Notes: generated from the sequence alone by a model not told the origin. A DNA stretch of 64,000 nt from an uncultured Bacilli bacterium (GCA_944349335.1 CALVMW010000001.1:615671-679670), one strand, 5' to 3'; shown: positions 8,729 to 58,964, counted from the stretch's first letter. Numbers and translations: made by a program.

Positions 8729-10714
8729 ATGGCTTGTAGTCATTGCAAAGTTCAACATAAAGAGTTAAGCGAAGAGAAAAAAGAAACAATAAAGAAAATA
8801 ATTTCTCTTGTCGTAGGTATTATCTTTTTAGTTATAGCTTATGTCTTAGTTAAAAATGATCCTACTATATATAAAGGAATAGAATGGGGATACTTTAGTC
8901 AAAGAGAATTTTATTCTTCCTACTCATTCATCTCTTTTATTTTATATTCAGTAGGTTACATTTACTTAGCTATCGATATCATCAAAGAGATGATAGAAGG
9001 GTTTAAAGAAAAAGAATTTTTTAATGAATCAACTCTAATGTTTATTGCGACCATAGGAGCCTATGCTATCTGTGAATTTCCTGAAGCTTTATTTGTTCTT
9101 CTTTTTAATATCGTCGGAGAAACTTTAGAAGAATATGCAACTAATAAATCAAAAAAATCTATCAATAAATTAGTTAATTCGATGCCATTATATGCTCATT
9201 ATGTAAATAGTGATGGTATGATTATTGAAAAAACACCGGAAGAAATTAATGTCGGTGATATTTTAGAAATTCATCCAGGAGAGAAAGTTGCAATCGATGG
9301 CGTTTTAATTAAAGGAAACACCTCTTTAGACTTATCTTCTATCAATGGAGAATCTTTACCAAAAGATATCATAATCGGTGATTTTGTATACTCTGGTTCT
9401 ATCAACCTCACTTCTAATATTCAAATTAAAACAACTAAAAAATATGAAGATTCTACTTTAAGTAAAATTATGTATTTAGTTGAAACTGAACAGAGCAAAA
9501 AAGCAAAAACAGAGAAATTTATAACTCGTTTTAGCCGCATTTATACACCGATAGTTATCCTCATCTCCCTGATAGTTTTCCTTACAGGATACGGCTTATC
9601 TGGTTTTGTTTGGGAGGGGAGTAATGGTGGTAGCATCTGGCTTTACCGCGCTTTATCTATTCTCCTTGTTTCTTGCCCTTGTGCTCTTATTATTTCTGTC
9701 CCGATCGGTTTCTTTGCTTCTATTGGTAAAGCGAGCTCTTTAGGCGTGTTAATTAAAGGTTCACTACCGATTGAAAATATGTCCAAAAGTAAATACTTTT
9801 TCTTTGATAAAACAGGAACTTTAACTAAAGGAAACTTTATTCTTAAAAATAAAGTTGACAATAAATATTTAAAGATAGCTGCCTCTATTGAATCAAAGAG
9901 TAATCACCCCTTATCAAAAGCGATATGCGATGCATATACGGGTGAACTTTTAAAAGTAGATGATGTAATAAATCATCCAGGATTTGGAATCGAAGGTTCT
10001 CTTGATGGTGATAAATATTTAATAGGCAGTAAAGAGTTTTTAATAAATAATGGAGTAAAAGATTTTGAAGAATATCAGACACCTTATAAAGTTCTCTACT
10101 TAGGTAAAAAAGGTGGTAATATGCTTTCTTATTTCATCGTCGCTGATGAAGTTAAACCTTCTGCTAAGGTTATGCTTTCAGCTTTAAAAGAAGAAAAAGT
10201 AAAAGAGACTATTATGCTGAGCGGAGATGAAGAAAAAATCGCTAAACAAGTCGCAAGCGATGTCGGTGTAGATAAAGTATTAGGCAATCTTTTACCAGAG
10301 GATAAACTAAATGAAATAAAATCAGCTTCTCAAAAAGGTAAAACTTGCTTTGTCGGTGATGGCGTCAACGATTCTCCTTCTCTTCTTGCAAGTGATGTCG
10401 GTGTAGCTATGGGCGCTTTAGGTAGCGATGCCGCTATTGAAGCGAGCGATATTGTTATTATGGATGATAATATCTTAAAAGTTGCTGAAACTAAAAGACT
10501 TTCAAAATATTCATTAGGAATTATCATCTCTGCTATTATCTTTTCTATTTTAGTTAAAGTTGCAGTTATGATTATTATCACCATTGGTTTAGCTGAAGAT
10601 TATGCGATGATTTTAGGATCGATATCAGATACAGCTGTTATGGCTTTATGCGTCCTCTACACTATGTCTATATTACTTTACAAACCTAAATATCTAAAAA
10701 GAGTACAAGCTTAA
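8729..10714 (+). CDS. cadA: Heavy-metal translocating P1B-type ATPase (Cd/Zn/Pb type)
   Basis: CPC transmembrane metal site (SCPCALI), DKTGTLT phosphorylation motif, GDGVNDSP hinge. Short N-terminal CxxC (MACSHC). GGGAGG RBS at 8718..8723. The ORF-track start at 8702 lies inside the -10 element, so the ATG at 8729 is preferred. Confidence 0.9.
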   Translation: MACSHCKVQHKELSEEKKETIKKIISLVVGIIFLVIAYVLVKNDPTIYKGIEWGYFSQREFYSSYSFISFILYSVGYIYLAIDIIKEMIEGFKEKEFFNESTLMFIATIGAYAICEFPEALFVLLFNIVGETLEEYATNKSKKSINKLVNSMPLYAHYVNSDGMIIEKTPEEINVGDILEIHPGEKVAIDGVLIKGNTSLDLSSINGESLPKDIIIGDFVYSGSINLTSNIQIKTTKKYEDSTLSKIMYLVETEQSKKAKTEKFITRFSRIYTPIVILISLIVFLTGYGLSGFVWEGSNGGSIWLYRALSILLVSCPCALIISVPIGFFASIGKASSLGVLIKGSLPIENMSKSKYFFFDKTGTLTKGNFILKNKVDNKYLKIAASIESKSNHPLSKAICDAYTGELLKVDDVINHPGFGIEGSLDGDKYLIGSKEFLINNGVKDFEEYQTPYKVLYLGKKGGNMLSYFIVADEVKPSAKVMLSALKEEKVKETIMLSGDEEKIAKQVASDVGVDKVLGNLLPEDKLNEIKSASQKGKTCFVGDGVNDSPSLLASDVGVAMGALGSDAAIEASDIVIMDDNILKVAETKRLSKYSLGIIISAIIFSILVKVAVMIIITIGLAEDYAMILGSISDTAVMALCVLYTMSILLYKPKYLKRVQA

Positions 10715-11058
10715 TGCTCGTACTCTTTTCTTTCACTATAAACTTTCTCATCTTTCTCAGAAACGTGCTCTAGACCTGTTTTAAATATATCTTTAATGTG
10801 ATTATCTTTTAAAGAATATAAAACTTGTTTTCCAGAGCGAGTAAAAATAACAATATCATGTTTACGAAGAATAGCTAGTTGATGAGATACTCTCGATTGC
10901 TCTAAAGAAAGTATTTCTGCTATCTCATTAACACAAAGCTTATTATCAATAAGAAGAGAGATAATCGCTAATCTAGTCTTATCAGCAAAAAGAGAGTAGA
11001 AAGAAGATAATGTTTCATAGGTGTTTTCAGACAATATCTTTATTTTGTTCTTTTCCAT
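10711..11058 (-). CDS. ArsR/SmtB-family metalloregulator (CadC/CzrA-like)
   Basis: 115 aa with a winged HTH (LFADKTRLAIISLL...CVNEIAEIL...VSHQLAILR). His/Glu/Asp-rich C-terminus. Convergent with cadA and overlapping its stop. Confidence 0.8.
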   Translation of the reverse strand: MEKNKIKILSENTYETLSSFYSLFADKTRLAIISLLIDNKLCVNEIAEILSLEQSRVSHQLAILRKHDIVIFTRSGKQVLYSLKDNHIKDIFKTGLEHVSEKDEKVYSERKEYEH

Positions 11059-11191
11059 AGTTCTTACCTTCTTAATTTATTATAAACTTTTCTTCATGAG
11101 TGTAAAATAGGCTAATTTAAGTAAATCAACCTATATATATGTTAAGGAAAAATACTAGATATATATATATTTATAATATATAATATATAAG

Positions 11192-11434
11192 TTGATTTTT
11201 GAGGTGAACATGAACACTGAAACTATCTATATATACGGAGAATATATCACTTTAGGACAGCTCATCAAGAAGATCGGGTTAGTTGAAAAAGGTGGGGATG
11301 AGAAAAGTTTCTTACAATCTCACTCTATCTTTTTTGGTGGTGTCGAAGAAAAAAGAAGAGGAAAAAAGTTACACATAGGTGAATCGATAACTATCGATTC
11401 TATCACCTACACTATATGTTCATCAAAGAATTAA
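11192..11434 (+). CDS. yaaA: S4-domain RNA-binding protein YaaA
   Basis: 80 aa located immediately upstream of recF, as in Bacillus. GAGGTGA RBS. Confidence 0.75.
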   Translation: MIFEVNMNTETIYIYGEYITLGQLIKKIGLVEKGGDEKSFLQSHSIFFGGVEEKRRGKKLHIGESITIDSITYTICSSKN

Positions 11435-12486
11435 CCCTAAGTAACTTTCGCTCCTATAAAGATCTTCACATTACTTTTCCTAATTCAACTATTTTTATTA
11501 TAGGTAAAAATGGTTCAGGAAAAACAAACATCCTTGAATCTCTCTATTATCTAAGTATTGGACGTTCATTTCTAAAAGTTGAAGATAAAAACTTAATCAA
11601 CGATAAAAGTTCAAGTGCGACTATCTTTATACGATACCATAGTGATAAAGACCATACTATCTCCTCTCTTATAACTCCTAAATATAAACAGATATATTTC
11701 GATGATGATAAAGTTAAAACACTATCTTCTCTACTCGGAAAGCTTTTAATAACTTATTATCTACCTAATCAAGTTTATCTTTTTAAAGAGGAGCCAAGTG
11801 AGAGAAGACGCATACTAGATGAGACTTTAAGTCAATTAGATAGCGACTACTTATATGAAATATCGCGCTATAAAAGATTACTTAAAGAGCGAAACTCCGC
11901 AATCGTTCAAAACTTCGATATAGATGTTATTAACGTCCTTAAAGATCAACTGATAAATCTTTCCTACTCCATCATCAAAAAAAGAAAGAAACTTATCTCC
12001 CTTCTTTCAGCTAGAACAGATGGAACTTATCACTCTTTATTTGCAAATAATAAAAAACTCAATCTCTTCTATAAAACTTCTTGCTCTTTAGCTGATGATA
12101 AAGACAAATTCATAAGCGAGATGGAGATTCTCTTCGAAAAGAACCGCTCTATTGAAAATATCAGACGCTCTACTATTATCGGTCCCCATAGAGATGATTT
12201 CTTCGCTCAAATTGATGACAAGAATCTTTCTTCTCATGGCTCTCAAAGTGAAAATAGATTAGCTTCTTTAAGCCTCCGTTTAGCTATAAGAGATGAGATA
12301 GAGTATGAAAAGAAGGAAAAACCGATTCTCTTGCTTGACGATATCTTATCGGACTTAGATAAAACGAGGCAAGATAACTTATTATCTTATATCAAAGATA
12401 AAGGTCAGGTATTTATAACTTACGCTAAGAGAGATGATAGGTTTAAAAATAATTTCATTTATACAACTTCAGACATGGAGGAATAA
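11416..12486 (+). CDS. recF: DNA replication and repair protein RecF
   Basis: Walker A GKNGSGKTN at the N-terminus, LLLDDILSDLD signature region, and synteny with gyrB. Confidence 0.95.
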   Translation: MFIKELTLSNFRSYKDLHITFPNSTIFIIGKNGSGKTNILESLYYLSIGRSFLKVEDKNLINDKSSSATIFIRYHSDKDHTISSLITPKYKQIYFDDDKVKTLSSLLGKLLITYYLPNQVYLFKEEPSERRRILDETLSQLDSDYLYEISRYKRLLKERNSAIVQNFDIDVINVLKDQLINLSYSIIKKRKKLISLLSARTDGTYHSLFANNKKLNLFYKTSCSLADDKDKFISEMEILFEKNRSIENIRRSTIIGPHRDDFFAQIDDKNLSSHGSQSENRLASLSLRLAIRDEIEYEKKEKPILLLDDILSDLDKTRQDNLLSYIKDKGQVFITYAKRDDRFKNNFIYTTSDMEE

Positions 12487-35365: not shown

Positions 35366-38011
35366 ATGTCACAAAATTTAAGTTTTTCTTTTTTATCAAA
35401 TAAATATAATTCCTCTTTAAAGATTTTACACGCCAGCACCCTTTCTATTATTTCAAAAAACTCTTTAGAGAGTTTTTTTATTGGTTCTCCGTTAACTTAT
35501 AGTGGCACCATCAAAGAATATTTTGCTCCTGTTTTATTAGTCGAGAATGAAATTGATGTTGCCTATCCTATCTTCTTCATTTCTATTATTAAAGAGAAAA
35601 AAGATGATTTGATCTCTTCTTTTATTTCTACTAAAAAAGTTTTACTTAATTCATTAGCTATCGATAAACTTAAAGAAATAAATATCGATTTAACTGATAT
35701 ATCACGATTAGATGACCTCTCTTCTTTTGTCTTTTCTTTATCTTCAATGATCAATTTAAAAGATGAGAAAGAACACTACTCTCTTATTTTTGCTTACTCT
35801 TTCTTTAATGAAGAAGATATTATTATCAATTCTTTATATCCTATCTTAAAAAATAATACTCTTTTTTCTTTGCCTGCTAAATATCAAAATTTATATTCTC
35901 CTAATAAAACTCATATTCAAAAAAATGATAACTTTATTATTAATATTCTTTCTCTATTAGAAGAAGAAAAAATAGTATCTTTAAAATATAGTAATGAAAA
36001 AGATATTATAAATATATTAATTAATCTCGCTTTTGAAAATCTAAAAAATAATAAAAATATAGCTGTTTTTATAAGTGATGATAAAAGTGAAAAATTAACT
36101 TCTTTTACTGAAAATGATTTTTTATTCTCTTCATTTCCTAAATCTAAACAAGAAAAGACAATAGATTTTGACCATCGTTATAATGAAGCAAAAGATACTC
36201 TTCTTTCTTATATAAAAAAGAAAGAAAATATTTATTATTTATTAAAAGTAATCTATTCTTCTTTAAATAAGGATGAAATAAAAGAGATATCAGAAAGTAA
36301 AAATAAAATTTTTACATTAAATACTTCTAATTATTCTGAAGAAGATTATGAAGTAGATCTAGTATTTTTAAATAAACTTTCTTCTTTTCCAACTTTATTT
36401 AATACTAAATTAAAAGATCATGTTTATTATGGCTTGAGCTGCTCTGATAAAAAAGAAAATTACAACATTATCCACTCTTTAATTTCACAAATAATTTCTG
36501 ACATTCAACAATTCAAAGAAATCCTTTCAAAAAAAAATATTTTAGATCTATACAATAATCCCATTTCTTCTTTTTCTTCTTTTGAAAAATACGGTGAAGA
36601 ATTATATCTATTAGAAACAATTCCAAATATAACTAAAGAATACGACACTAAAGATATTGATTTAAATTCATTAAAAAAGTTATATCAATCTATCTCTTCC
36701 ATTATTTTATTAATTAATAATATATTAGACTCAAATATCTATAATGATAACATTAATGATATTGTTGAAAAATATAACTCTGCTACTTTTTTACAAAAAA
36801 GAAAGATTAAAAAACATATCGAAAACTTATATATAGATAAAAGCAAAAAAGAAAAAAATAAATTTTCGACAATCATGCGTTTATTAAAGCTCTATGTAGA
36901 ACAAAATCAAGAAATTATTTCCTTATTACCTGCTTCTTTCTATCAAAATGAAAGAGGTATCGAATCATTAAAAGATATTCAAAACATTGAAAATCAAATT
37001 AATAATTACAATCGTTTTAAACAATATAAAGAAAAGAATCCTGAATTCTCTTTAAATAATCCTCTTATTTCTGCTTGTTTAGATAAACCAGAAGTTTTAG
37101 CTAAAAGGATTTCTGATTATCGGATAATAAATAAACTTTATCTTTCTTTAAAAACAAAAATAAACACTTTTATCGGTTATTTCTTAGATGATAACTATCC
37201 TTTCTTTACTAGTAATATAAATGAACTTTTAACTTACTTCCAAAATAAAACTCGTGGAGACTATCAACTATTCTCTAATTATGCTGATTTTAAAACTGAA
37301 TTAAAAAAGACTTCATTTACTTTACAATTAGCTTTAAGAAGATTCCAAAACTTCAATATAAAATATCAAGATTATAAAGTAACTTATTTAAAGTCGCTAA
37401 TCTTATCCATTAAAGATAATGCTGATGAAAACTTTGAAGAGATTGAAAAAGAGTTTAATCAGGCAGAAGAAAACTATAAAAATATGATTTTAAATATTAA
37501 AGATATAGTGATCAATAATCTTTGTTATTATACCTATACCAATGAAAATAGTGCTCTTTATCTATTCACTCCAGATGATTTATATTTATTAAACAAAGAT
37601 ATTTTTGATTTAGCAATAATTTTTAATACAGAAGATTTCTCACAAGTAGAAATATTTAAAATATTATCTTCAGCTAAAACTCTTCTTTTATTAAATAAAA
37701 ACTCTTCTTATGATGAAAGAATAATTGATTTTAATTCTTTATCTTGCGACTTAAAAGATCAATTTATTTTCTATAAACTTACTCATGAGGAGTTAAATAA
37801 TCATTATCAAAAATATTTAGAAGATAATTCTTATCAAGAAATAGATAATGATTACCCATATTTAATTAAAGATGATGATAATATTATATGCCTCTTTTTC
37901 AATACTGATATTTATGATAAGGAAGAAGAATTTATACAGCTTTCAACAAATTTAAATATTTTATATAGTTATCAAATTAAAGTTATCGATATTATCGAAC
38001 TCTTAAAATAA
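35366..38011 (+). CDS. Large hypothetical protein (881 aa), no recognisable domain
   Basis: Long intact ORF, N/K/I/L/S-rich with no TM segments. Only a faint helicase-motif-II-like stretch (LAIIFNTEDFSQ). No SD sequence before the annotated ATG. Confidence 0.55.
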   Translation: MSQNLSFSFLSNKYNSSLKILHASTLSIISKNSLESFFIGSPLTYSGTIKEYFAPVLLVENEIDVAYPIFFISIIKEKKDDLISSFISTKKVLLNSLAIDKLKEINIDLTDISRLDDLSSFVFSLSSMINLKDEKEHYSLIFAYSFFNEEDIIINSLYPILKNNTLFSLPAKYQNLYSPNKTHIQKNDNFIINILSLLEEEKIVSLKYSNEKDIINILINLAFENLKNNKNIAVFISDDKSEKLTSFTENDFLFSSFPKSKQEKTIDFDHRYNEAKDTLLSYIKKKENIYYLLKVIYSSLNKDEIKEISESKNKIFTLNTSNYSEEDYEVDLVFLNKLSSFPTLFNTKLKDHVYYGLSCSDKKENYNIIHSLISQIISDIQQFKEILSKKNILDLYNNPISSFSSFEKYGEELYLLETIPNITKEYDTKDIDLNSLKKLYQSISSIILLINNILDSNIYNDNINDIVEKYNSATFLQKRKIKKHIENLYIDKSKKEKNKFSTIMRLLKLYVEQNQEIISLLPASFYQNERGIESLKDIQNIENQINNYNRFKQYKEKNPEFSLNNPLISACLDKPEVLAKRISDYRIINKLYLSLKTKINTFIGYFLDDNYPFFTSNINELLTYFQNKTRGDYQLFSNYADFKTELKKTSFTLQLALRRFQNFNIKYQDYKVTYLKSLILSIKDNADENFEEIEKEFNQAEENYKNMILNIKDIVINNLCYYTYTNENSALYLFTPDDLYLLNKDIFDLAIIFNTEDFSQVEIFKILSSAKTLLLLNKNSSYDERIIDFNSLSCDLKDQFIFYKLTHEELNNHYQKYLEDNSYQEIDNDYPYLIKDDDNIICLFFNTDIYDKEEEFIQLSTNLNILYSYQIKVIDIIELLK

Positions 38012-38012
38012 A

Positions 38013-38034
38013 AAGAGAGGATTTCTCCTCTCTT
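38013..38034. terminator. Bidirectional terminator between the 881-aa ORF and the convergent SOR gene
   Basis: AAGAGAGGA-TTTC-TCCTCTCTT, a 9-bp stem flanked by A/T runs on both strands. Confidence 0.7.
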
Positions 38035-38401
38035 AAGCGATCTCTTTAACCCAAAGGCCGTGAAGATTACAATATTCGTAAACAGCCTTTACTTTTTCAC
38101 CCTCTGCTAATTCAAAATCAGCCTTAGGTTCACCTGTTTTTTCAAGATACTTAACTTGAACAACATCATCTGTTACACAAGCAATAAAAGCTATATGATG
38201 TTCAACAGTCATCGGATGGATTGTACTTCCGACTTCAACATGAACCTTATTGCCTTCGATTGAAACAACAGGAACATGCTTTTCAGTAGCTGCATCTATT
38301 GAGTTAGCTTTTAACTCAATATAATTATCATCTCCTTCTTTAGGAAGTAAAGAAAATACAACCAAACCACTCTCTTTCTCTTTGTAAAATTTAACATCCA
38401 T
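38033..38401 (-). CDS. Superoxide reductase (1Fe-SOR / neelaredoxin-desulfoferrodoxin family)
   Basis: EKHVPV, HP...EHHI and CNLHGLW ligand motifs. 122 aa. AGGAGG RBS. Confidence 0.85.
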   Translation of the reverse strand: MDVKFYKEKESGLVVFSLLPKEGDDNYIELKANSIDAATEKHVPVVSIEGNKVHVEVGSTIHPMTVEHHIAFIACVTDDVVQVKYLEKTGEPKADFELAEGEKVKAVYEYCNLHGLWVKEIA

Positions 38402-38433
38402 AACATTTGCCTCCTATCTTTATTTTATCATTA

Positions 38434-38688
38434 TTAACGGAAATATTCGCGAAAATCGAACTGATATTTATGACGGCAATATTGAATAATATCAAAAATA
38501 TTCCATAAAACACCGACAAAAATAAGGTTATATAAAAGTTTAACTAAAGCAAACTTCCAACCTAATTTAAATGATTTAATATAAACAAATTTATCGATTC
38601 CTAACCATCCTAAGAATATTAAACAAAGCAAGAATAGTGGAGAAAACTCTTCTTTTTCATTACTATAATCAGTTTTTGCCATCTGCAT
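38434..38688 (-). CDS. TM2-domain small membrane protein
   Basis: 84 aa, two TMs, with LGWLGIDKFY resembling the TM2 GxxGxHRFY signature. Confidence 0.6.
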   Translation of the reverse strand: MQMAKTDYSNEKEEFSPLFLLCLIFLGWLGIDKFVYIKSFKLGWKFALVKLLYNLIFVGVLWNIFDIIQYCRHKYQFDFREYFR

Positions 38689-38777
38689 TCCTCCTATAGA
38701 CTAAATAATTATAACTTACTTTTTTCTTTTTTTGTATCGTCTAGCATTTTTATTTGAATTATTATCACTACTAACCC

Positions 38778-40493
38778 TTATTTTAACCTAATAAGAGATG
38801 AACTATACTCCTTTCCGAATATATCATTAACATTGATTGATACATAATTTGCCTTTTTAATTTCACTTCTTTTAATATTTTCACCTTTATAAACCATATC
38901 GTGATTATCAATATTGATTACATCCCCATAATTTAAGCTCTCCATATATTGTTCATTTTCTTCTAATATAGGAACAAATCCGATTATCTCATACACTCCA
39001 TTTAACTCATCATCTATAGCATATTCATAACTAAAATATAAATTACCTTCAACATCGTTAACTTCTACATTAGTCTTATATGTAATCTTAGCCGTATATG
39101 GATCAGTATCATCTTGAAATGAAGTTATTGAATAATTTAAAAGATAATCTCCTAAAGTCAATTCAAATAAAGCAGAATTATCTACAGAAATTATGGTATT
39201 CTTACTACTATCATCAAAAATAGAATTCAAGGAAACTTTATCTGATTTAATAACTTTTTTATCATTATCATAAAATACATATTCAAATATAGCTGCATAA
39301 GTAGGAGCTAATTCATCTAATGTAACTTTAATTATTTGATCTACTTCACCACGGGAAGTATTAAGAATATTTATATAATTCTTATTTTTCAAGTCATTAC
39401 GATGCTTTAAAAAAGAAAGATATTCTGGATAAAAACAACTGGAAGAATAATTGTTAATATCATTAGCTAAAAGTTCATCCTTATAAAAAATAGATAAACC
39501 TGAAGTATCAAATCTTGTTCCATGTATTTCATGAACTATAGCCTCTTTAAGTTTATTTTTTAAAAAATTACCTGAGGATGTCTCACTAAATAAATCAAAA
39601 ATATCTTTACCAAATGATCCAACATTATTTGTATTACTTACTCCCTTTAAAAAATCAGTAAATTCTTCGAGTGAACTATTATATAAAAGAGAAGCAAAAT
39701 ATTGATCAAAACTCTCCCTTACATCATTAAGAGCACTTAAATCAATGAGCGATAGAGTCAAAGTATCTTTTAAAGAACTATTTTCATATTTTCTTAAAGT
39801 ATCATCAATGATTTTGACTCCAATCTCCTCTATGCTTTCTGAATTATTATTAATAAAATAATTTATCATTGAAGTATAACTATAACCTAAAGAAGGAAAA
39901 ACATGCTCAGAAGCGATAGCATAATCAGCACTAGTTGAAACTGAAGTTAAAAGGTCAAGATTAGAAGTATAACAAGCATTAAAAATTAAAAGATCATAGA
40001 ATGAATCTTCTAAAGCTTCATGTATTTCTTCATAAGTTAAATAATCCTCATATAAAGAATCAATACATAAAGAATAAGTTGAACCATGTCCCCAAAACAA
40101 TAATACTTTTTTATCCGCTTTAATATCTTTAGAAAAAGAAACAAAATCTTTTAAGGTGCTCATTTCACCCATATTTGCTTTATAACTATCCAGCAAAATT
40201 AATTCATTTTCTACTTTAAATCGGGAAACTAAAGTAGAAATATTTTCATTTGACCAGGTTTTAGCGCCACCAGTTTCAAGATATATCTCAATATTATCAC
40301 TTTTTTCTATCGCTAATATTTCATTAATAACTTCACTAGCAGCCCCGACATTTTCTTCTAAATCTCCCCCGCACATATAAATGAAAAGAGCATAAGATTC
40401 ATTATTAAAAGTCATACTGCTAGTACTACTACAAGAAATTAATGAAAATAAAATAAGGAAAAAAGATAATATCTTATTGCTTAGTTTTTGCAT
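38778..40493 (-). CDS. Clostripain-like (peptidase family C11) lipoprotein
   Basis: Lipobox LISC at the signal peptide end. YMCGGDLE, catalytic-dyad-like FWGHGS and FNACYT motifs. 571 aa. Confidence 0.75.
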   Translation of the reverse strand: MQKLSNKILSFFLILFSLISCSSTSSMTFNNESYALFIYMCGGDLEENVGAASEVINEILAIEKSDNIEIYLETGGAKTWSNENISTLVSRFKVENELILLDSYKANMGEMSTLKDFVSFSKDIKADKKVLLFWGHGSTYSLCIDSLYEDYLTYEEIHEALEDSFYDLLIFNACYTSNLDLLTSVSTSADYAIASEHVFPSLGYSYTSMINYFINNNSESIEEIGVKIIDDTLRKYENSSLKDTLTLSLIDLSALNDVRESFDQYFASLLYNSSLEEFTDFLKGVSNTNNVGSFGKDIFDLFSETSSGNFLKNKLKEAIVHEIHGTRFDTSGLSIFYKDELLANDINNYSSSCFYPEYLSFLKHRNDLKNKNYINILNTSRGEVDQIIKVTLDELAPTYAAIFEYVFYDNDKKVIKSDKVSLNSIFDDSSKNTIISVDNSALFELTLGDYLLNYSITSFQDDTDPYTAKITYKTNVEVNDVEGNLYFSYEYAIDDELNGVYEIIGFVPILEENEQYMESLNYGDVINIDNHDMVYKGENIKRSEIKKANYVSINVNDIFGKEYSSSLIRLK

Positions 40494-41148
40494 AAAACCT
40501 CCTTGTTAATATAATTAAAATTATTCCAATAATAATAGAGATAAGAGCAAAAATATGAGATATAGAAAAAATAGAAAATAAATTTGTTCTCACCCTAAAA
40601 AACTCAATAATAAACCGCAATAGTCCATAAATCAAAAAGAAAAGATAAAAGCATTGACCTTGATATAATTTTTTATAATGAGTAAAAAAGATAAACAATG
40701 TAGCCATCAATAAACAAGAAACAGATTCAATAATCTGTGTTGGAATTTTAAAACCATCAATCGTAATTCCACCACAACAACCTGATATCCAGCAATCCAC
40801 TCTATAAAACCCGAGCATAATTAAGGAAGCGATAGTAATAAAAGAAGCGACATTAAGATAATCTTTTTTAAAAATAAGAGATACAATAAAAGCAGATAAT
40901 GGTAAAAAGAAGATTGCTCCAAATAACGAAAAACCGCTAAAAGTTAAACCATAATGAATTACAAAATCCAAATTTTCAAATATATATAATAGTTTTGCTC
41001 CAAGAGAAAGAATTATTAAATTAATAATTCCATAAAGAAATGCATATAACTGCTTTTCTTTAAAAAAAGGAGCATCAATTAGAAAATATATTTGTGAAAA
41101 AACAATACCTACAATCCAAAAGAAATAACCGGAAGTTATGATATCCAT
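40474..41148 (-). CDS. lgt: Prolipoprotein diacylglyceryl transferase (short variant)
   Basis: Polytopic 224-aa protein with the C-terminal Lgt signature LLRFIIEFFR and HYG. The central motif reads YRVDCWISGCCGG instead of GR.GNF.N.E. Confidence 0.65.
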   Translation of the reverse strand: MDIITSGYFFWIVGIVFSQIYFLIDAPFFKEKQLYAFLYGIINLIILSLGAKLLYIFENLDFVIHYGLTFSGFSLFGAIFFLPLSAFIVSLIFKKDYLNVASFITIASLIMLGFYRVDCWISGCCGGITIDGFKIPTQIIESVSCLLMATLFIFFTHYKKLYQGQCFYLFFLIYGLLRFIIEFFRVRTNLFSIFSISHIFALISIIIGIILIILTRRFYAKTKQ

Positions 41149-41153
41149 AACTA

Positions 41154-42995
41154 TTAGAATGAAAGCTTTGTTCGACTAATAGTACCTGTTTTTGGATTAT
41201 TAGATAAATCAGTAATCGAATAATATCTTATCGGACTATTATGAATACTAGCGTTCCAATTTATCAAATCTTGAGTGCCATATGTAATATTTCTAATATA
41301 ATCAGAAGCGCTATTTCCTATTCCTTCAAACAAATACCATCTTTCTTCAAACTTAGGTCCACAATTAGAATTGACAGAATGTTTTTCACAATAAAGAGAA
41401 TAATATACTTTATTATAATTATGAGACTTTACAAATTCAGAGATCTTCATATTAATATCAACACAAGTTACTGCAACACAATTTTTGAATTTTCTTCCGT
41501 TATTATAATAATCATCATAATTACCTAAACCTTTTTCAGCACCTAAAATAAGATAAGAAGATTGATTATTAGTTGGGAATAAGAAACCTTCATTACTTAA
41601 AAATTGCTTAAAAGTTAAATCATCATCTTGTAAAACATTGTAAATATCATCAACAAATTTATTGAAGTCCTCTTTAGTAATATTTCCAAAAGAATCATAT
41701 TTTATACTGATATCACCATTATCACTGATCTCAGAAACCGATAATATATCCTTAGCCCAAACAGTCTTTATTGTTTTATCAGCTGTTTGAGTATATGAAC
41801 CACCAGCATTTAAAGTGCGTTTACTAGAATCGATAGTAACTTTATCTAAACCATTTGTCGTAATAAAGTCATCATATAATTCACATATCTGATTATAGTC
41901 AGATAACATATTAGAAAAATTATTTGCTATTAAATAAGCGGTGCCGCTGATGTTATTTATCATCAAAGGCTCAGCCTCTACTAAGGTCGTATCTTTTATA
42001 AGATCACCATAATATTTTTCATATGTCTCTTTATCTGAACTATTATTATGGCAATTTCTATAGACTGTACTTACACCATCACTAGTATATTGATAACCGA
42101 TAACTGTTACAGCAGTATCTGAAAGTTCTTTAGTTTGAGAATCGATAGCTGGGGCAAAATAAATTTGATCGATTCCAAAATCATCTAGTTTCATAGAAAA
42201 ATCTAAAGAAGCTAGTTTAAGTCCCGAACTATAGGCAGTAAATGGAGCAGCGATAGCATCTGTAAATAAGGCTAATTGATTTTCTTTATAAACATTTTGA
42301 AGTTTAGCAAATCTATAAACAATTTCAAATATATTATCTCTAGCTAAACTAGCAATAGATGTTTGATCACCGACGATGCAATGAGCTAAATTTGTGAGAG
42401 AGGTATAAATTTCAGAAGCTGCTAAACCGCTAGGATTAATTTCAATTAATAAATCATCAATCTGACTTTCAATATTAGTGGCAGTTTTATCTTCAATATC
42501 TTTTTCTAAATCCATCAATAACTTATAAGGACCATCAATAAAATCAGCTAGCTCTGTATAAGTACTATAAAAATTAGTATATATATTGCGGTAATTTTCA
42601 TTTTCAAAACTAGAAGATAATCTATCAAGCTTTTTATTAATATCCTCTAATTCAGCATTAATATTAGATAAGGAATCTAAAACATTCTGCATGAATTGTT
42701 CTTCACTAACATAAGAGAAGCCTATCTTATCTAAAATATTTCCAATAACGCTTGAAACAATAGGAGAAACAACACTAGAAACACCAGATTCAATACCAGA
42801 ACTAACTGCACTAAGAGCAAAATCTAATAATTTTGAACCGATGCTAGCTAATCCGCCATCCATATCATATGAATCAGGTTCAACAACAACAGGAATACTA
42901 TCATTACTACTGCTGGTATCGCTACAACTAGTAAGACCAGTCGTGAGTAAAGTGAGGGTAGATAAAGTGAATAATAAAGCGGATTTTCTTTTCAT
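41154..42995 (-). CDS. Large surface lipoprotein of unknown function (613 aa)
   Basis: Signal peptide with lipobox LTSC followed by a Ser/Asp-rich linker. No recognisable catalytic motif. Confidence 0.7.
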   Translation of the reverse strand: MKRKSALLFTLSTLTLLTTGLTSCSDTSSSNDSIPVVVEPDSYDMDGGLASIGSKLLDFALSAVSSGIESGVSSVVSPIVSSVIGNILDKIGFSYVSEEQFMQNVLDSLSNINAELEDINKKLDRLSSSFENENYRNIYTNFYSTYTELADFIDGPYKLLMDLEKDIEDKTATNIESQIDDLLIEINPSGLAASEIYTSLTNLAHCIVGDQTSIASLARDNIFEIVYRFAKLQNVYKENQLALFTDAIAAPFTAYSSGLKLASLDFSMKLDDFGIDQIYFAPAIDSQTKELSDTAVTVIGYQYTSDGVSTVYRNCHNNSSDKETYEKYYGDLIKDTTLVEAEPLMINNISGTAYLIANNFSNMLSDYNQICELYDDFITTNGLDKVTIDSSKRTLNAGGSYTQTADKTIKTVWAKDILSVSEISDNGDISIKYDSFGNITKEDFNKFVDDIYNVLQDDDLTFKQFLSNEGFLFPTNNQSSYLILGAEKGLGNYDDYYNNGRKFKNCVAVTCVDINMKISEFVKSHNYNKVYYSLYCEKHSVNSNCGPKFEERWYLFEGIGNSASDYIRNITYGTQDLINWNASIHNSPIRYYSITDLSNNPKTGTISRTKLSF

Positions 42996-43285
42996 TTTTT
43001 TCTCCTTTAAGAAACTTGTTTTCTAATTTTATTATTTTAAAATACGATAAAAGATAACATTTTAAGATAAATATAGAGGATTAATATGTTGTCATCTAAA
43101 TTATCCTTTCTTCTATTATTATAAAAATAGAAAAGTCTATATAATTATAACTTTTTAAAACTAATATTTACAATCATAAACATAAACCTTTACATATAAT
43201 AATTATCAGCGATCACTTATCTCTTTTTCTCTCATACTTTAAAAAACAGACAGTTTTTTTTATAATAATTAAAGGAGGGTAAACA

Positions 43286-43930
43286 ATGGTTAAAACATTT
43301 TTATGCGATGAAACTAAACATGAATTTAGTGCAAATACTTATATTATCGGTAAAATTAATTCTTCTTGTTTAGTTATCGATATCGGTATGAGGGATGAAG
43401 CTATTTACGATTATATTGATTCTCACTATACCCGCTGCTTAGGTGTACTTTTAACACATGGACACTTTGACCATATTAGAGGTTTACCCGCATTTTTAAA
43501 ACATTATAAAGATACACCTGTCTACCTTCATCCAGAAGATGCCCATCTTTTATATGATTCTACAGCCAATGCCTCTTATTTAACTGGAGAATCTGTCTCG
43601 ATGAATTTACAAACAATCGATGTTAAAGATGGAGAGACTCTACACATCAAAGAAACTAATATTCGCGTTATTCACACTCCTTTCCACACAAAAGGAAGCG
43701 TCTGTTATCTATTTGAAGATGATAATGCTCTTTTTACTGGAGATACTTTATTTAAAAATGGCATCGGAAGATTCGATTTAGAAACTAGCGATGCCACTCA
43801 AATAATACCTTCTTTAAAAAAATTAGCAGGACTTAAAGATACTTTAGTCGTTTATCCTGGACATGGTTCTTATACAAGACTAGGCGAAGAAAAGCAAACC
43901 AATCCATATTTAGTTGAAGCTTCGTTATAA
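43286..43930 (+). CDS. MBL-fold metallo-hydrolase
   Basis: THGHFDH metal-binding motif. 214 aa. Confidence 0.85.
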   Translation: MVKTFLCDETKHEFSANTYIIGKINSSCLVIDIGMRDEAIYDYIDSHYTRCLGVLLTHGHFDHIRGLPAFLKHYKDTPVYLHPEDAHLLYDSTANASYLTGESVSMNLQTIDVKDGETLHIKETNIRVIHTPFHTKGSVCYLFEDDNALFTGDTLFKNGIGRFDLETSDATQIIPSLKKLAGLKDTLVVYPGHGSYTRLGEEKQTNPYLVEASL

Positions 43931-45649: not shown

Positions 45650-46555
45650 GTGACAAGAATAAAACGTATCATCTCCAAAGTATTCTCTATTCCTATCTTT
45701 AATAGAATCATCGTAATAGTCGCCTTAGTCCTCTTTCTTATCATTCCTGTTGTTTCATTACAATTTACTTTTTTTATGCCTTACGCTTTAAATTCTTCTT
45801 ACCCTTCCCTTCTGATTATTGGTGCTATTTTAGGAATCGGGGCTGTCGCTTTATATAAGCCGACAAACATGACTTTATTTTTCTTTATTGAATTATTTTT
45901 TATCATGTTCTTTTTCCACGATTATATTCTTGATTTACCGGGAAAGATTATTTTTAATATCGAACCTATCTTTAACTTAGAATTAATATATTGCACGTTA
46001 GCTTTATTTATTTTCTTTATTCAAATGTTCTATGTTTATTTTTCAAAAAAGAATTTAAAAAAAACAATAAAAGAGGATGCAAACCACGATTCCATTTTTG
46101 AATTTTTATGCGCTTCTGATTCTAATAAGAAAATAGAAAAGAAAATTGAAAATATCGCTAAAGATTCTAAAATTGAATTATTAATAAAAAAGAAAACGAG
46201 CTTATCAAAAATATGTCGTTTTTTAACTTATATCCCTTTCTTAATATTTTCAGTAATTTCTCTAAGTCACTTAAATGAAGCTCTATTATATAGTAACTTA
46301 TTAACAACAAATATTATTACTAGTTTATTTATTGTAACAATATCTTTTATCTTCTCTTTTTTAGCTCCCAAAGATTTTAAATATGTCTTTTTCTTTAATA
46401 TCTATTTATTTACTGCTGGCAATATTATCATCAGTTATTATTTACAACATCTACCTTTTTTATTCATTATAATTTCAATCATCACTACTTTAAATCTGAT
46501 AATAACAATGATTCCCGAAGGAAGAAGATGGATGGGTGCAAAACTTGACGCTTAA
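45650..46555 (+). CDS. Hypothetical polytopic membrane protein
   Basis: 301 aa with at least 6 hydrophobic segments and no motif. Confidence 0.5.
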   Translation: MTRIKRIISKVFSIPIFNRIIVIVALVLFLIIPVVSLQFTFFMPYALNSSYPSLLIIGAILGIGAVALYKPTNMTLFFFIELFFIMFFFHDYILDLPGKIIFNIEPIFNLELIYCTLALFIFFIQMFYVYFSKKNLKKTIKEDANHDSIFEFLCASDSNKKIEKKIENIAKDSKIELLIKKKTSLSKICRFLTYIPFLIFSVISLSHLNEALLYSNLLTTNIITSLFIVTISFIFSFLAPKDFKYVFFFNIYLFTAGNIIISYYLQHLPFLFIIISIITTLNLIITMIPEGRRWMGAKLDA

Positions 46556-55015: not shown

Positions 55016-56989
55016 CTATTTCTTATCAATCTTTTTGTTTTTTAAAATATAAAACAACAACAATATAATAGGTATAAGTGAGACAAATATACTGAATGAA
55101 AATGTTTGAAAAGCCACTGGAGCGACAACATCATTAAAATGTATATCCCCTAAACAAGATGAATAACTTCCATAAACATCATAAATAAAACTATAAAGTA
55201 AAGCATTTTCACTATTAATAAATAAAGGATAACTAATAATAGTAATAAGTAAAAGTAAAATAACTGGAATAAATATATAAAATGAAAGAATAAATCTTGT
55301 CATCCTATTTGTATATCCTAATCTTTTATAGAAAAACATTTCATCTTTAATATCTAATTTTCTCTTTTTATTAGAAATAGATAATACTATAACTGCTAAA
55401 ATAAATATTAAAACAGCACTTAAAACAAAAGCTAAACCATTTATAAATGTTTCTTCAAAATTATCAGGTATTATCCCTAAAACGACAAAATCGTTTTTTG
55501 CTAGTTCTATTGTTGTGTCCTTATTTTCTATAAAAATCAATCCTCTAGAATTGCTAACCACATAAGAAAGAGATAATAAATATAAATAAACATCATATCC
55601 GATCACGGGGTGATTTTCTGAAGTATCATCAGTAGTATTTATACTAGAGATTTCCTCATCATTTTTAATAATCGAAACACGTTCCCCTTTAGCTACATTA
55701 GGAATAGCAAAATAGCCTGTTTCAGGTGTTAAAATAACTTGAGTTTCATTTTCAGTATTAATATTAATTTGATTATTATGAATATTAAATATTGAATGTA
55801 AATTAAATTGCAAAACATTATTAACAACGCAATTAAATCCACCACTTTCAAGAATTGAATATAATGTGTTTTTTGTTATTGCATGTACACGATAATATTT
55901 ATCTCTTCGAGAAATATGAGGTAAATCAAGTGATATTTCAATATTTTTACCTGGCAAACTTAATATATCATTAAATAAAAAAGATGAGCCATCTTCATAA
56001 GCTGATGAATAAATAATACCATCCTTTAAATTCATTTTATCAGTAACTAAAAAAGAATCCCCCTGTACAATATTAACTAAAAATTGAGAATCATCGTCAT
56101 ACAATTCTTTAAAGTCATCATATGATTTATTATCCGTTGTTACTTCAAAATATGAATGAGGATCCACTTGAACACTATAAACATCTGGATCTCTTAATTC
56201 AGATGGTGAAATTCTTGTTATTCCAAACGAATAAAAAATAGAAAACATTATGGACATTATAAATAACAGAGCAAAATTAATTTTATGTTCCTTAATATTA
56301 TTAAAAAGAAGGTTAGAAGTTAATTTTTTATCATGTGCGTTTTTTATTGGTTTTTCATTTAATTCATATCCTATATTATTTATAACTATAGTTTCTTCTG
56401 GTAGATTAAGAATCTCTTCTACAGAAATAGTAATATTTTCATGAGAGACTAAAATAATTAAATGATTCTCTTTTTCTTTATCTAATATTTCTAAAATTTG
56501 TTCAATAGATTCTTCATCTAATCCATCTAATGGTTCATCTAAAACTAAAATTGGTTTATCACATAAAAGAGCATATATTAATTCTGATTTTCTCCTATTA
56601 CCATAGCTTAATTCATTTATTGGAGAAGTTGTACTAGAAACTTTTAATTTTTCAACTAAAAAAGAATATTTTTCAGTATCAAAATCAGGAAGTAAAATAT
56701 TTAAATTTTGAATGAGACTCTTTTTAGGTAATAATGATCTTCTATCACCTACATAAGAAATTTGACTAGCAAAATCAGGAATATTCTTTTCATTTACTTC
56801 TTCATTAAATAGTTTTACTGTTCCACTATCTGGTTTTAAATCACCAAAAATAATATTAATAAGAGAAGTTTTACCACATCCCGAAGGCCCTTTGATCCAT
56901 AATATACCACTATTTATTTTTAAATTTATATTTTTAAGAATTTTCCGTAATCCAAAATTGAGTGATATATTTTGTAATTCTAGTGTCAT
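55016..56989 (-). CDS. ABC transporter, fused ATP-binding / MacB(FtsX)-type permease, B-type paralog (657 aa)
   Basis: GPSGCGKTS, degenerate signature LSYGNRRKSELIYAL, ILVLDE. TM, large extracytoplasmic domain, then C-terminal TMs. ATGA overlap with the upstream gene. Confidence 0.85.
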   Translation of the reverse strand: MTLELQNISLNFGLRKILKNINLKINSGILWIKGPSGCGKTSLINIIFGDLKPDSGTVKLFNEEVNEKNIPDFASQISYVGDRRSLLPKKSLIQNLNILLPDFDTEKYSFLVEKLKVSSTTSPINELSYGNRRKSELIYALLCDKPILVLDEPLDGLDEESIEQILEILDKEKENHLIILVSHENITISVEEILNLPEETIVINNIGYELNEKPIKNAHDKKLTSNLLFNNIKEHKINFALLFIMSIMFSIFYSFGITRISPSELRDPDVYSVQVDPHSYFEVTTDNKSYDDFKELYDDDSQFLVNIVQGDSFLVTDKMNLKDGIIYSSAYEDGSSFLFNDILSLPGKNIEISLDLPHISRRDKYYRVHAITKNTLYSILESGGFNCVVNNVLQFNLHSIFNIHNNQININTENETQVILTPETGYFAIPNVAKGERVSIIKNDEEISSINTTDDTSENHPVIGYDVYLYLLSLSYVVSNSRGLIFIENKDTTIELAKNDFVVLGIIPDNFEETFINGLAFVLSAVLIFILAVIVLSISNKKRKLDIKDEMFFYKRLGYTNRMTRFILSFYIFIPVILLLLITIISYPLFINSENALLYSFIYDVYGSYSSCLGDIHFNDVVAPVAFQTFSFSIFVSLIPIILLLFYILKNKKIDKK

Positions 56990-58962
56990 TTTTCATTAAG
57001 TCTCTTTAATTTAGATGAAATATCTTTAGGTGATAAGTACAAAGCATAAATAAAATAGAATACTAAACAACTAAAAATAGGAATAATTATTGATAATGAT
57101 AAATAAAGAGGAGATAAATATAAAAGGAGAATCTTTGCACCAATCATATTATGTGAAAAGAAATTATTAAGACATACAAACGAAATAACCGAAATAATAA
57201 AACTTAAAATAGTTGGGATTAATGATGATAAAGAATAAACAAAAGTGCTACGCATAATCTGAACTTTTCTATCAACACTAATTACTCTCTCTAATAAAAT
57301 GCGTTTTCTTTCACTTAAGGCATAAGATAAAGGTATTAAAATTGCAGATACAGCTAAATATATTAAAATAATCAAAGGAATAAAGTTATACTGCACCATA
57401 TCATAAAGCACATAAAGATAATTTGTTCCATCAAAAGTTACTGCATAACTTAAATTATCGTTTTCATTTTCAGGTTTTATTAATTTAGATACTATATAAT
57501 CTAGATAATAAGAATCAAACATATCTTGGTTGATTATTTTTTCTGTTTCTTCAGTACGAAGAATCATTGTTTTATCATTATAATTTACTACATTAAATAC
57601 ATTATTCTCATTAACAAATGCAGTCTCTACTCCAAAACCAAATAATAATCTAGAATCATCATAAAAATAATCAGAAGATAATTTATCAAATGCTTTAATA
57701 AATCTTTCTTCCACCATACTTATTGGTTTATAAAAACCACATACATGGACATTAATTGGGCTATTAAACCATTTAAATTCATTAGACTCAAAGAACAACT
57801 CTTCTGCTTCAGAAAAAGAACTCAAATTATTCTGCTGCTGAAAAGTATTAATACAATATTCATATGATTTATATGAAACTAAAACATCATTTTCATTTAT
57901 AGGATATGTTCCTAATGTTTTTCCATCTTTTGTTTCTAACTGAATAATACCATTTTCATAACCACCAACAGGATAAGCAAAACCAAAAGCTGAACCTCCT
58001 ATACTTCCTTCAGAACGATTAGTAAAGGAAATTGTTCCCTCTGTTGCTGGGTGTTGAGAAAAAACAAACTGTGTTTCAGTTGGGAAATTATTAGAATATT
58101 CATTTGACACAACATAACCGCTAGCATTCTTCATATAAGCAGTTAAACCTATTTCAGTTAAATGCTCATTTGAATAATCAAATAAAAAGATTGATCCTAA
58201 TACCAATATAAAAACAGCCAAGAAGCAATTGACTGAATTTAAAATATAAGCAAATTTATGAGAAGAAAATTCATGTTTAATAGTTTCTAAATTGATTTTA
58301 GAAAAACTAACTGCTTTCGTTCTGTTAGTAGATATACCATTTTCACTAACTAAAATAAGATTTTTATTTTCAACCTTTAAGATTGTTCTTTCTGTTTCTT
58401 CTTTTATATGAGATGTATAAATAACTAAACTATTATTAGATAATTCATGCATTATCTCTAATATAATTTTTCTATTATTTTCATCGAGATTATGAATAGC
58501 TTCATCAAAAATAATTATTGCTGGATTTTTAAATATAGCTCGTGCAATCGATAACCTCTGTCTTTCACCTTGTGATAATATTTCAGCTTTAGAATCAGCT
58601 AACTCATCTAATTTTACTTTTTTTAAACATTCAATAGCTTTATTTCTATCTTTACTAGAATATGGATAAAGAACATTTTCTACCACCGTTATATCTTTAA
58701 GAATAATTGGTGTGTCCATAATAAAAGCAACATAATTTGATGTATAACTACTAGCATTCTTTTTATCTATTTTTTTATCATTATAAAGAACCTCGCCTTC
58801 ATAATCCAAATCAAGGCCGGCAATTATTCTTAATAATGTTGTTTTTCCACTTCCATTTTTTCCTTCAATCTGAAAAAGGCCTGTGTCAGGAAAAGTAAAA
58901 GAAATATTACTTAATACATTTAATTTTCCAAATGATTTTGAAAGATTCTTTATTTCTAGCAT
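56986..58962 (-). CDS. ABC transporter, fused ATP-binding / MacB(FtsX)-type permease, A-type paralog (about 658 aa)
   Basis: GKNGSGKTT, LSQGERQRLSIARAI, IIIFDE, DLDYEGEVLYND block. Likely ATG at 58962 (MLEIKNLS); the ORF-track TTG is at 58968. Confidence 0.85.
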   Translation of the reverse strand: MLEIKNLSKSFGKLNVLSNISFTFPDTGLFQIEGKNGSGKTTLLRIIAGLDLDYEGEVLYNDKKIDKKNASSYTSNYVAFIMDTPIILKDITVVENVLYPYSSKDRNKAIECLKKVKLDELADSKAEILSQGERQRLSIARAIFKNPAIIIFDEAIHNLDENNRKIILEIMHELSNNSLVIYTSHIKEETERTILKVENKNLILVSENGISTNRTKAVSFSKINLETIKHEFSSHKFAYILNSVNCFLAVFILVLGSIFLFDYSNEHLTEIGLTAYMKNASGYVVSNEYSNNFPTETQFVFSQHPATEGTISFTNRSEGSIGGSAFGFAYPVGGYENGIIQLETKDGKTLGTYPINENDVLVSYKSYEYCINTFQQQNNLSSFSEAEELFFESNEFKWFNSPINVHVCGFYKPISMVEERFIKAFDKLSSDYFYDDSRLLFGFGVETAFVNENNVFNVVNYNDKTMILRTEETEKIINQDMFDSYYLDYIVSKLIKPENENDNLSYAVTFDGTNYLYVLYDMVQYNFIPLIILIYLAVSAILIPLSYALSERKRILLERVISVDRKVQIMRSTFVYSLSSLIPTILSFIISVISFVCLNNFFSHNMIGAKILLLYLSPLYLSLSIIIPIFSCLVFYFIYALYLSPKDISSKLKRLNEK

Positions 58963-58964
58963 AA

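Follow-up and report, generated by a model that had tools for sequence, protein, structure and literature searches.

A head-less Lgt homolog encoded between two lipoprotein genes: a conserved lipoprotein-Lgt-C11 peptidase cassette in an uncultured Bacilli bacterium

Prolipoprotein diacylglyceryl transferase (Lgt) is regarded as an antibiotic target and as a housekeeping enzyme that is single, general, and inherited vertically. Duplicated lgt genes occur in Streptomyces and mycobacteria, and the MIB-MIP system of Mollicutes consists of two large, surface-tethered proteins encoded in tandem, one of which is a serine protease. Described here is a stretch of 64,000 nucleotides (nt) from an uncultured Bacilli bacterium (GCA_944349335.1, CALVMW010000001.1:615671-679670), referred to as the window, in which a short member of the Lgt family (mini-Lgt) is encoded between the genes of a large orphan lipoprotein and a clostripain-type (C11) peptidase lipoprotein. 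This triad of genes recurs as a conserved unit of 4.2 kb. MIB-MIP is a working analogy to the triad only; the two share no sequence relationship, and the MIB-MIP unit has no lipidation enzyme.

Other known systems each resemble part of the cassette. Ordinary Lgts, represented by the E. coli enzyme (PDB 5AZB/5AZC) and the 245-280-amino-acid (aa) Lgts of Clostridia, have in common with mini-Lgt the PF01790 family, seven hydrophobic segments, a basic tail, a conserved core and, in the case of Clostridia, a GCC-G signature. C11 peptidases of gut bacteria, such as PmC11 of Parabacteroides merdae and clostripain, share with the C11 protein of the window the PF03415 domain, a His/Cys dyad in WxHG and xACx contexts and, as far as can be predicted, a secreted, membrane-tethered state (PMC4850288). 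Paralogs in specialized clusters outside the housekeeping locus are exemplified by lspA3 and lspA4 of Myxococcus xanthus (PMC8689077). Such lspA and lgt paralogs are, however, full-size, are not known to be sandwiched between client genes, and form no head-less clade. The predicted Skillet-1 (Lipocone) operons follow the same logic as the triad, since a lipid-transfer enzyme is encoded beside its proposed client, a protein with a "GS" lipobox-like motif (bioRxiv 10.1101/2025.01.14.632903). In that case the enzyme belongs to an unrelated superfamily and the proposed acceptor is Ser, whereas the triad combines classical Cys lipoboxes with an Lgt homolog. A literature search found no paper mentioning both diacylglyceryl transferase and clostripain, and neither the triad nor a client-coupled clade of head-less Lgts turned up in it. 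Real and strongly non-random, the feature places known families of enzymes in an arrangement that is both new and conserved, and adds a new orphan family.

Open reading frame (ORF) calling of the window places the triad at the head of five co-oriented genes on the minus strand, with products of 613, 224, 571, 84, and 122 aa. The genes and their candidate expression signals are as follows:

41154-42995, minus strand: gene of the 613-aa lipoprotein, first of the co-oriented set
40474-41148, minus strand: gene of the 224-aa Lgt-family protein (mini-Lgt), with a Pfam LGT match
38778-40493, minus strand: gene of the 571-aa C11 peptidase lipoprotein, with a Pfam Peptidase_C11 match
38434-38688, minus strand: gene of an 84-aa two-helix membrane protein, starting 89 nt downstream of the C11 gene
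38033-38401, minus strand: desulfoferrodoxin-family gene (122 aa), with a Pfam match
43144..43173, minus strand: promoter-like site TTGTAA-18-TATAAT, a consensus match only
40498..40504, minus strand: AAGGAGG Shine-Dalgarno sequence for the C11 gene, within the 3' end of lgt
38013..38034, minus strand: terminator-like hairpin, 3' of the fifth (desulfoferrodoxin) gene

Only 5 nt separate the stop codon of the 613-aa gene from the start of lgt, and, as had been noted in the original prediction, lgt overlaps the C11 gene by exactly 20 nt (40474-40493). The AAGGAGG sequence (40504-40498) lies inside lgt, 4 nt ahead of the C11 ATG. Together, the 5-nt and -20-nt junctions and the position of this Shine-Dalgarno sequence indicate that the three genes are translationally coupled. 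The same lgt/C11 overlap is observed at another locus, L003 (L numbers denote individual loci), by way of a GTG start. The 613-aa gene begins at an ATG at 42995 preceded by the Shine-Dalgarno sequence AAAGGAGA, and the 290-nt divergent intergenic region upstream of it holds the promoter-like site, although the count of such sites in this region is not above shuffled expectation. The hairpin at the other end is the sole minus-strand terminator-like hairpin within 37900-43400, and the desulfoferrodoxin gene probably closes the transcription unit, in the window species only. An Rfam search found no regulatory RNA near the operon. Converging on the operon terminator from the plus strand is the gene of an 881-aa protein (35366-38011) that has no Pfam or NCBIfam match and lies within the most AT-rich stretch of the window (~21% GC).

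The original prediction had also tentatively included the fourth gene, labeled as TM2. That label was not borne out, as the 84-aa product scores 14.7 bits against TM2 (PF05154; cut-off 27.9, E=0.037). The gene is missing downstream of the C11 gene in L003, L005, L008, L109, and L110, occurs in no other copy of the cassette, and lies outside the conserved unit.

The window has a GC content of ~29%, and the genes around the cassette are those of a core chromosome (recF-gyrB-gyrA, dnaX-recR-tmk-holB, PFOR, NrdD, MetRS, and RF1), with which the cassette shares its composition. The sequence is identical to part of a metagenome scaffold (scaffold_4 of 448,839 bp, ENA ERZ28615593), and the window proteins recur on an NCBI contig of 875,710 bp and in many other samples. 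All ORFs of at least 80 aa were scanned for a lipobox, defined as [LVI][ASTVI][GAS]C within the first ~35 residues, following a basic n-region and a hydrophobic h-region. In the entire window, only the 613-aa and 571-aa products carry one, and both agree with the lipoboxes originally read on either side of lgt. The 613-aa protein begins with MKRKSALLFTLSTLTLLTTGLTSC|S (...GLTSC|S), having LTSC at residues 21-24 (nt 42935-42924), whereas the 571-aa protein begins with MQKLSNKILSFFLILFSLISC|S (...SLISC|S), having LISC at residues 18-21 (nt 40442-40431). Since these are the only two lipobox ORFs in the window, and since the same arrangement recurs in unrelated contexts, the cassette goes beyond chance.

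The full order of large lipoprotein, Lgt, and C11 is found in the window and in L003, L005/L012, L008, L028, L029, L109, and L110. Copies were obtained from the neighborhoods of close relatives of the 224-aa protein, from a scan of species-representative genomes (which gave L012 and L013), from a metagenome scan (L028, L029/L031), and by looking up the remotest relatives of the 613-aa protein (L109, L110, L112). An uncultured Eubacteriales metagenome-assembled genome (MAG) has the triad with frameshifts in all three genes (L013, 8113-12446), representing either a whole-unit pseudogene or assembly errors, while L112 has the large lipoprotein gene followed by lgt and then the end of the contig. 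The triad spans about 10 lineages with GC contents of 27-59% and unrelated flanks, and its three proteins diverge in parallel (35-46%, 51-63%, and 39-47% identity). Elsewhere, the cassette adjoins ParE, AbiEii, DUF3800, and similar genes, suggesting accessory regions, which is not where a housekeeping lgt would be expected. In the window species the cassette is fixed, being present in all sampled strains, and the 15 sampled variants of each protein are all full length. The triad proteins vary 2-4 times more within the species than do GyrA, PyrG, and MetRS. With its tight coupling and a gene order conserved this widely, the operon-like grouping first proposed for the window is a conserved unit, and the evidence for functional linkage is now much stronger than it was at that stage. 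Other exported proteins are encoded beside some copies: an 899-aa M4 (thermolysin-type) peptidase in L109 (4932-7631), and an S41 peptidase with a 240-aa lipoprotein in L005 (3583-6170).

At about even odds (a probability of roughly 0.5), the three genes are read here as a self-contained lipidation-plus-protease surface module. Mini-Lgt, made from the same tightly coupled message, would serve as a minimal phosphatidylglycerol:prolipoprotein diacylglyceryl transferase that transfers diacylglycerol to the lipobox Cys of both neighbors as they emerge from the translocon. Signal peptidase II would trim the 613-aa and C11 proteins, and the orphan lipoprotein and the protease would be tethered side by side on the external face of the membrane, where the protease would work with or on the large lipoprotein as its substrate, adaptor, or regulator. 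The reading draws on gene anatomy, conservation of gene order, retention of catalytic residues, and invariance of both lipobox Cys residues. From these we infer that mini-Lgt is enzymatically active, that its neighbors are its clients, that it is an accessory paralog and not the only Lgt of the cell, and that the C11 protease and the large lipoprotein interact. If true, an Lgt subfamily that travels with its clients would mean that lipid anchoring could be privatized for single surface machines.

The identification of the middle gene as Lgt stands at the level of the family, but not as a standard Lgt. The 224-aa protein matches Pfam LGT (PF01790) with 66.4 bits against a cut-off of 24.9, and it groups with the Lgt family and not with another family of membrane enzymes. 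It scores far below the cut-offs of the two NCBIfam Lgt equivalog models, TIGR00544 and NF000778, with 57.8 vs 334 for one and 40.1 vs 118.9 for the other, and has no direct sequence match to the E. coli Lgt of solved structure. Judged by these profiles, it is a member of the family and not an equivalog.

An alignment with E. coli Lgt (its sequence checked against 5AZB) and 22 ordinary Clostridia Lgts locates the conserved core of mini-Lgt. The signature R116-V-D-C119-W-I-S-G-C124-C125-G-G127 (nt 40803-40768) and the C-terminal motif Y174-G-L-L-R178-F-I-I-E182-F-F-R185 retain R116, G123, and G127 (R143, G150, and G154 in E. coli) as well as Y174, G175, R178, E182, and R185 (Y235, G236, R239, E243, and R246), and between them lie P136, Q138, and E141 (P197, Q199, and E202). 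Throughout the mini-Lgt clade, R116, G127, Y174, R178, E182, and R185 are invariant or nearly so, and none of the 17 sites that vary within the window species falls on an invariant residue. The kept residues make up the phosphatidylglycerol-binding and catalytic network of the Lgt crystal structure (PMC4728403), and the core covers most of the residues confirmed as essential (bioRxiv 10.1101/2025.03.27.645668). Seven hydrophobic segments are seen in the hydropathy analysis, and the C-terminal tail is basic.

Other positions differ from the E. coli enzyme. Those of N146 and E151 are both Cys in mini-Lgt (C119 and C124). Ordinary Clostridia Lgts, named Lgt by their sources, normally have this RxxCxxxGCCxG form as well, and so the substitutions are not diagnostic and by themselves are no argument against activity. 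The window protein and most of the clade have Phe at the H103 position, whereas the canonical Clostridia set has Tyr; H103 is thought to activate the Cys thiol (bioRxiv 10.1101/2025.03.27.645668), and the position is Tyr or Trp in Firmicutes and Actinobacteria. G142 is replaced by Tyr, and Y26 is not clearly kept, its column holding Gly with a Tyr one residue on in a part of the alignment that is uncertain. The N-terminus is shorter than in ordinary Lgts, and the head loop, which runs from the signature motif to the P197 position, is reduced to 8 residues (24-25 in Clostridia, 42 in E. coli). Across the mini-Lgt clade this loop has 4-16 residues. The head domain has been reported to matter for Lgt function (bioRxiv 10.1101/2025.03.27.645668), and is now thought to position substrates; mini-Lgt, if the reading above is true, would be a natural "minimal Lgt" that lacks it.

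The 224-aa protein has few close relatives, twelve of which form a tight group of 212-233 aa. The short-loop Lgts form one clade, apart from the canonical Clostridia Lgts, in a neighbor-joining tree (no bootstrap). Among plasmid matches, only an ordinary 270-aa Lgt on the megaplasmid of Lachnospira eligens was found.

Several observations weigh against a self-contained module. Positions essential in E. coli are altered (N146 to Cys and H103 to Phe) and the head domain is nearly gone. The triad lipoboxes are ordinary, and nothing shows why a general Lgt could not serve them. Partners of 790-2076 aa in the sister groups have no lipobox Cys; their N-termini bear an anchor or a signal of the signal-peptidase-I type instead. 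The 613-aa protein has no recognizable fold, which makes its relation to the protease a guess. Finally, mini-Lgt could be the sole Lgt of the window genome. A search of the six-frame translation of the 64-kb window with a hidden Markov model (HMM) of canonical Lgt recovered the known gene only, and no canonical Lgt of the window species was seen among the retrieved homologs, where the low-GC candidates P0027 and P0028 lie on short contigs from other organisms.

That last point leads to a different explanation, in which mini-Lgt is the ordinary and only Lgt of the cell, shortened in a reduced genome, serving all of its lipoproteins and sitting between two of their genes by evolutionary habit. 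The intact catalytic core and the core-like composition of a cassette present in all sampled strains would also suit this explanation. We nevertheless consider it unlikely. The triad recurs over 27-59% GC with unrelated and often accessory flanks, the mini-Lgt clade stands phylogenetically apart from canonical Clostridia Lgts, and families that MAG titles assign to clade members, Lachnospiraceae among them, possess a canonical Lgt of 270 aa in their cultured members. Moreover, the frameshifts of L013 hit all three genes together, and the search for a second lgt covered 64 kb of the genome.

An accessory, client-bound role for the clade is consistent with its gene neighborhoods. All 23 of 23 mini-Lgt loci encode an exported protein of 570 aa or more, either fused to the Lgt or adjacent on the same strand, and of 30 ordinary lgt loci only 2 do so (Fisher p=5e-13). 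The counts are of distinct loci with enough flanking sequence, taken from the same scans, and ORF calls were corrected manually at four of the mini-Lgt loci. Ordinary lgt loci mostly have a gene of ~305 aa upstream, which we take to be hprK. The mini-Lgt clade is distinct and is universally paired with large exported proteins, often, in the sister groups, by overlapping stop and start codons.

The partners outside the triad are diverse. Those of L009, L015, L018, L023, and L025 are 790-900 aa long with an N-terminal anchor, while those of L010, L021, and L032 are BspA-type leucine-rich repeat (LRR)/Big_2/fn3 proteins of ~1000 aa. Others are a 1319-aa VWA protein, a 1810-aa protein, and a 2076-aa protein with a SpaA domain and an LPXTG signal, and further lipoprotein partners are found in L016 and L020. 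In L024, a single 850-aa ORF (9749-12301) joins a mini-Lgt domain of seven transmembrane segments to Listeria-Bacteroides repeats through an additional membrane segment that resembles a signal peptide. Upstream of this fusion, two proteins with signals of the SipW-dependent type are encoded. Apart from these two unrelated neighbors, a search for the SipW-type signal (TIGR04088) found no match in the partners that have no lipobox. Several of the contigs carry doubtful names: L014, L015, L016, L017, and L025 come from MAGs titled Bacteroides uniformis, Alistipes onderdonkii, Hallerella, and Paludibacteraceae, yet are 34-40% GC contigs with Firmicutes-type genes, and one and the same 879-aa protein is encoded by L015 and L017, which bear different names, so that the taxonomic labels look unreliable.

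A motif, [IV]G[FYA]?[AS]S.[YW][IL], recurs after the N-terminal hydrophobic segment in proteins encoded beside sister mini-Lgts, at the following positions:

L009: 586-3093
L015: 7338-9977 and 6571-7320
L023: 374-3001
L025: 7266-9977
L020: 14299-14913

It is seen in a handful of sequences for which there are no statistics, and one copy has Cys in place of Ser (IGFC-TWY). Its core, [IV]G[FYA]?[AS]S.[YW], may be a Ser-type, lipobox-like sorting signal.

As several partners have no lipobox Cys, the activity common to the clade may not be classical lipobox modification. Mini-Lgts could perform a partner-specific lipid transfer that needs no classical lipobox and might use another acceptor residue or donor lipid, with the triad as one version of a wider anchoring system for very large surface proteins. 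This would accommodate the coupling of sister mini-Lgts to BspA-type LRR, Listeria-Bacteroides repeat, VWA, and SpaA-domain proteins, the L024 fusion, the motif that follows the h-region in one class of partner, and the combination of an altered H103 position with a lost head domain. For an unrelated enzyme family, a Ser-type lipobox-like signal with its own enzyme has been proposed (bioRxiv 10.1101/2025.01.14.632903). Such a transfer by mini-Lgts remains quite unlikely in our estimation, since both triad partners have perfect, invariant Cys lipoboxes that fit most simply with normal Lgt chemistry, the Cys-rich signature is common to ordinary Clostridia Lgts, and the Ser motif comes from so few sequences. 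In its fullest form, the idea would make the head-less mini-Lgts an unrecognized class of client-dedicated protein-lipid transferases, each encoded with, or occasionally fused to, the giant surface protein that it would anchor, in which sister groups with lipobox-less partners perhaps use a non-canonical acceptor such as the Ser of [IV]G..S.[YW] and the triad is the lipobox-using, protease-bearing version; this, too, we regard as quite unlikely. Non-canonical acceptor use, if true, would be a novel way for Gram-positive gut bacteria to lipidate proteins.

Within the favored module, the protease is the better understood client. The description of the 571-aa product as a C11 (clostripain-type) peptidase lipoprotein is borne out by a match to PF03415 over residues 39-274 (98.1 bits, cut-off 25.8) and by His136 (FWGHGS) and Cys174 (FNACYT), which align to the catalytic WSHG and FDACY of solved C11 structures and are conserved throughout the window subgroup. 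The lipobox Cys is present in all eight complete C11 partners. PmC11 employs His133, Cys179, and Asp177, the last being an S1 residue conserved throughout the C11 family that sets Arg/Lys specificity (PMC4850288). In the window, the corresponding position, two before the Cys, is Asn172, and Asn is also found in L003, L005/L012, L008, and L028, which predicts a different P1 preference. The distant triads L029, L109, and L110 keep the Asp (GFDACLM), and the altered S1 pocket is thus derived in the window subgroup. Additional differences from PmC11 are the lack of a conserved basic residue in the loop where PmC11 cleaves itself, a further C-terminal region of ~300 aa with no family match, and the obligate link to an orphan lipoprotein and a mini-Lgt.

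The 613-aa protein has no Pfam or NCBIfam family, in agreement with its first description as a lipoprotein of unrecognized family. Searches of its family against Pfam, NCBIfam, and PDB profiles returned coiled-coil noise only. An exhaustive HMMER search found 18 homologs among 1.84 billion representatives, nearly all of ~600 aa, and a further word-indexed search, with a 12-sequence alignment of the family, again returned only the same three proteins. No plasmid match was found. With its basic n-region, hydrophobic h-region, and lipobox, the protein is certainly exported and, judging from this signal, almost certainly lipid-anchored. In 12 of 12 large-protein relatives the lipobox Cys is unchanged, at identities down to 20%. 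The family also has a conserved C-terminal motif, GLSxxPKTGTxxRxxLS[FW]-like, with the form GLSxxPKTGTxxRxxLSF in the window. Gly, Ser, and hydrophobic residues are abundant in the N-terminal segment.

The gene of this protein is always accompanied by a protease gene. Even in the rearranged locus L111 (63-3634, of the P0044 lineage), the one exception to the triad order, where the contig ends 62 nt upstream of C11, the C11 gene lies directly before that of a 599-aa lipoprotein, with no Lgt between. This adjacency backs the protease/substrate pairing raised by the original prediction, and the 613-aa and C11 proteins may be such a pair. An Lgt subfamily that travels with its clients would also point to an uncharacterized surface protease module, comprised of a C11 peptidase with an altered S1 pocket and an orphan ~600-aa lipoprotein, in recurrent uncultured anaerobes.

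An AlphaFold (AF2) model of the 613-aa protein built from 12 sequences had a mean predicted local distance difference test (pLDDT) score of 69 and was usable over residues 130-613 (mostly 70-94). It predicts a bundle of long helices (98-272), then a hairpin region of three beta strands (275-313), further helices (319-380), and, toward the C-terminus, a beta-rich domain (400-613), with low confidence in the N-terminal region despite its conservation. An earlier candidate model from three sequences, with a pLDDT of 37, was unusable. Foldseek searches of the 12-sequence model against PDB and viral models gave no match with E<1e-3. The best PDB matches were Vip3 protoxins, which were non-significant (E=0.06, probability 0.57, TM-scores <=0.22).

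These matches raise the idea of a lipid-anchored protoxin or pore-former: the 613-aa protein would comprise a helical bundle, a beta "tongue", and a domain for receptor binding, and C11 cleavage would activate it, much as fragipain acts with the B. fragilis toxin or gut proteases with Vip3. The order of predicted domains, the composition of the N-terminal segment, and the obligatory pairing with a protease would be in keeping with it. Weighed against these are the low TM-scores, the lack of any Pfam or PDB sequence match, the loss of the hydrophobic N-terminal segment in the distant half of the family, and a context with nothing toxin-like in it, and we consider the idea very unlikely. Homology to Vip3 or to pore-formers was rejected at the level of sequence profiles, given a profile probability of 0.3% for Vip3Aa, for which an approximate sequence was used, and the fold matches were non-significant. 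The favored reading leaves the part played by the large lipoprotein broader, as a substrate, adaptor, or regulator of the protease.

Other features of the window lie apart from the cassette. Five proteins of 620-670 aa combine an N-terminal ABC ATPase domain (Pfam) with ~450 residues that have no Pfam match:

632-2494, minus strand: ABC ATPase protein
23214-25232, minus strand: ABC ATPase protein
25229-27121, minus strand: ABC ATPase protein
55016-56989, minus strand: ABC ATPase protein
56986-58968, minus strand: ABC ATPase protein

This architecture is unusual and is repeated in the window, singly or as overlapping tandem pairs, and two of the genes adjoin ORFs with no Pfam match (2497-3378 and 58965-59762). 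Between the genes of MetRS and PrmC, on the plus strand, lies that of a 301-aa multi-pass membrane protein (45650-46555) with a GTG start and no Pfam match. Finally, a bacterial small signal recognition particle RNA (Rfam RF00169, 59.4 bits) is located at 61442-61527 on the minus strand, where it abuts the start of a tadA-like deaminase gene (61004-61456).

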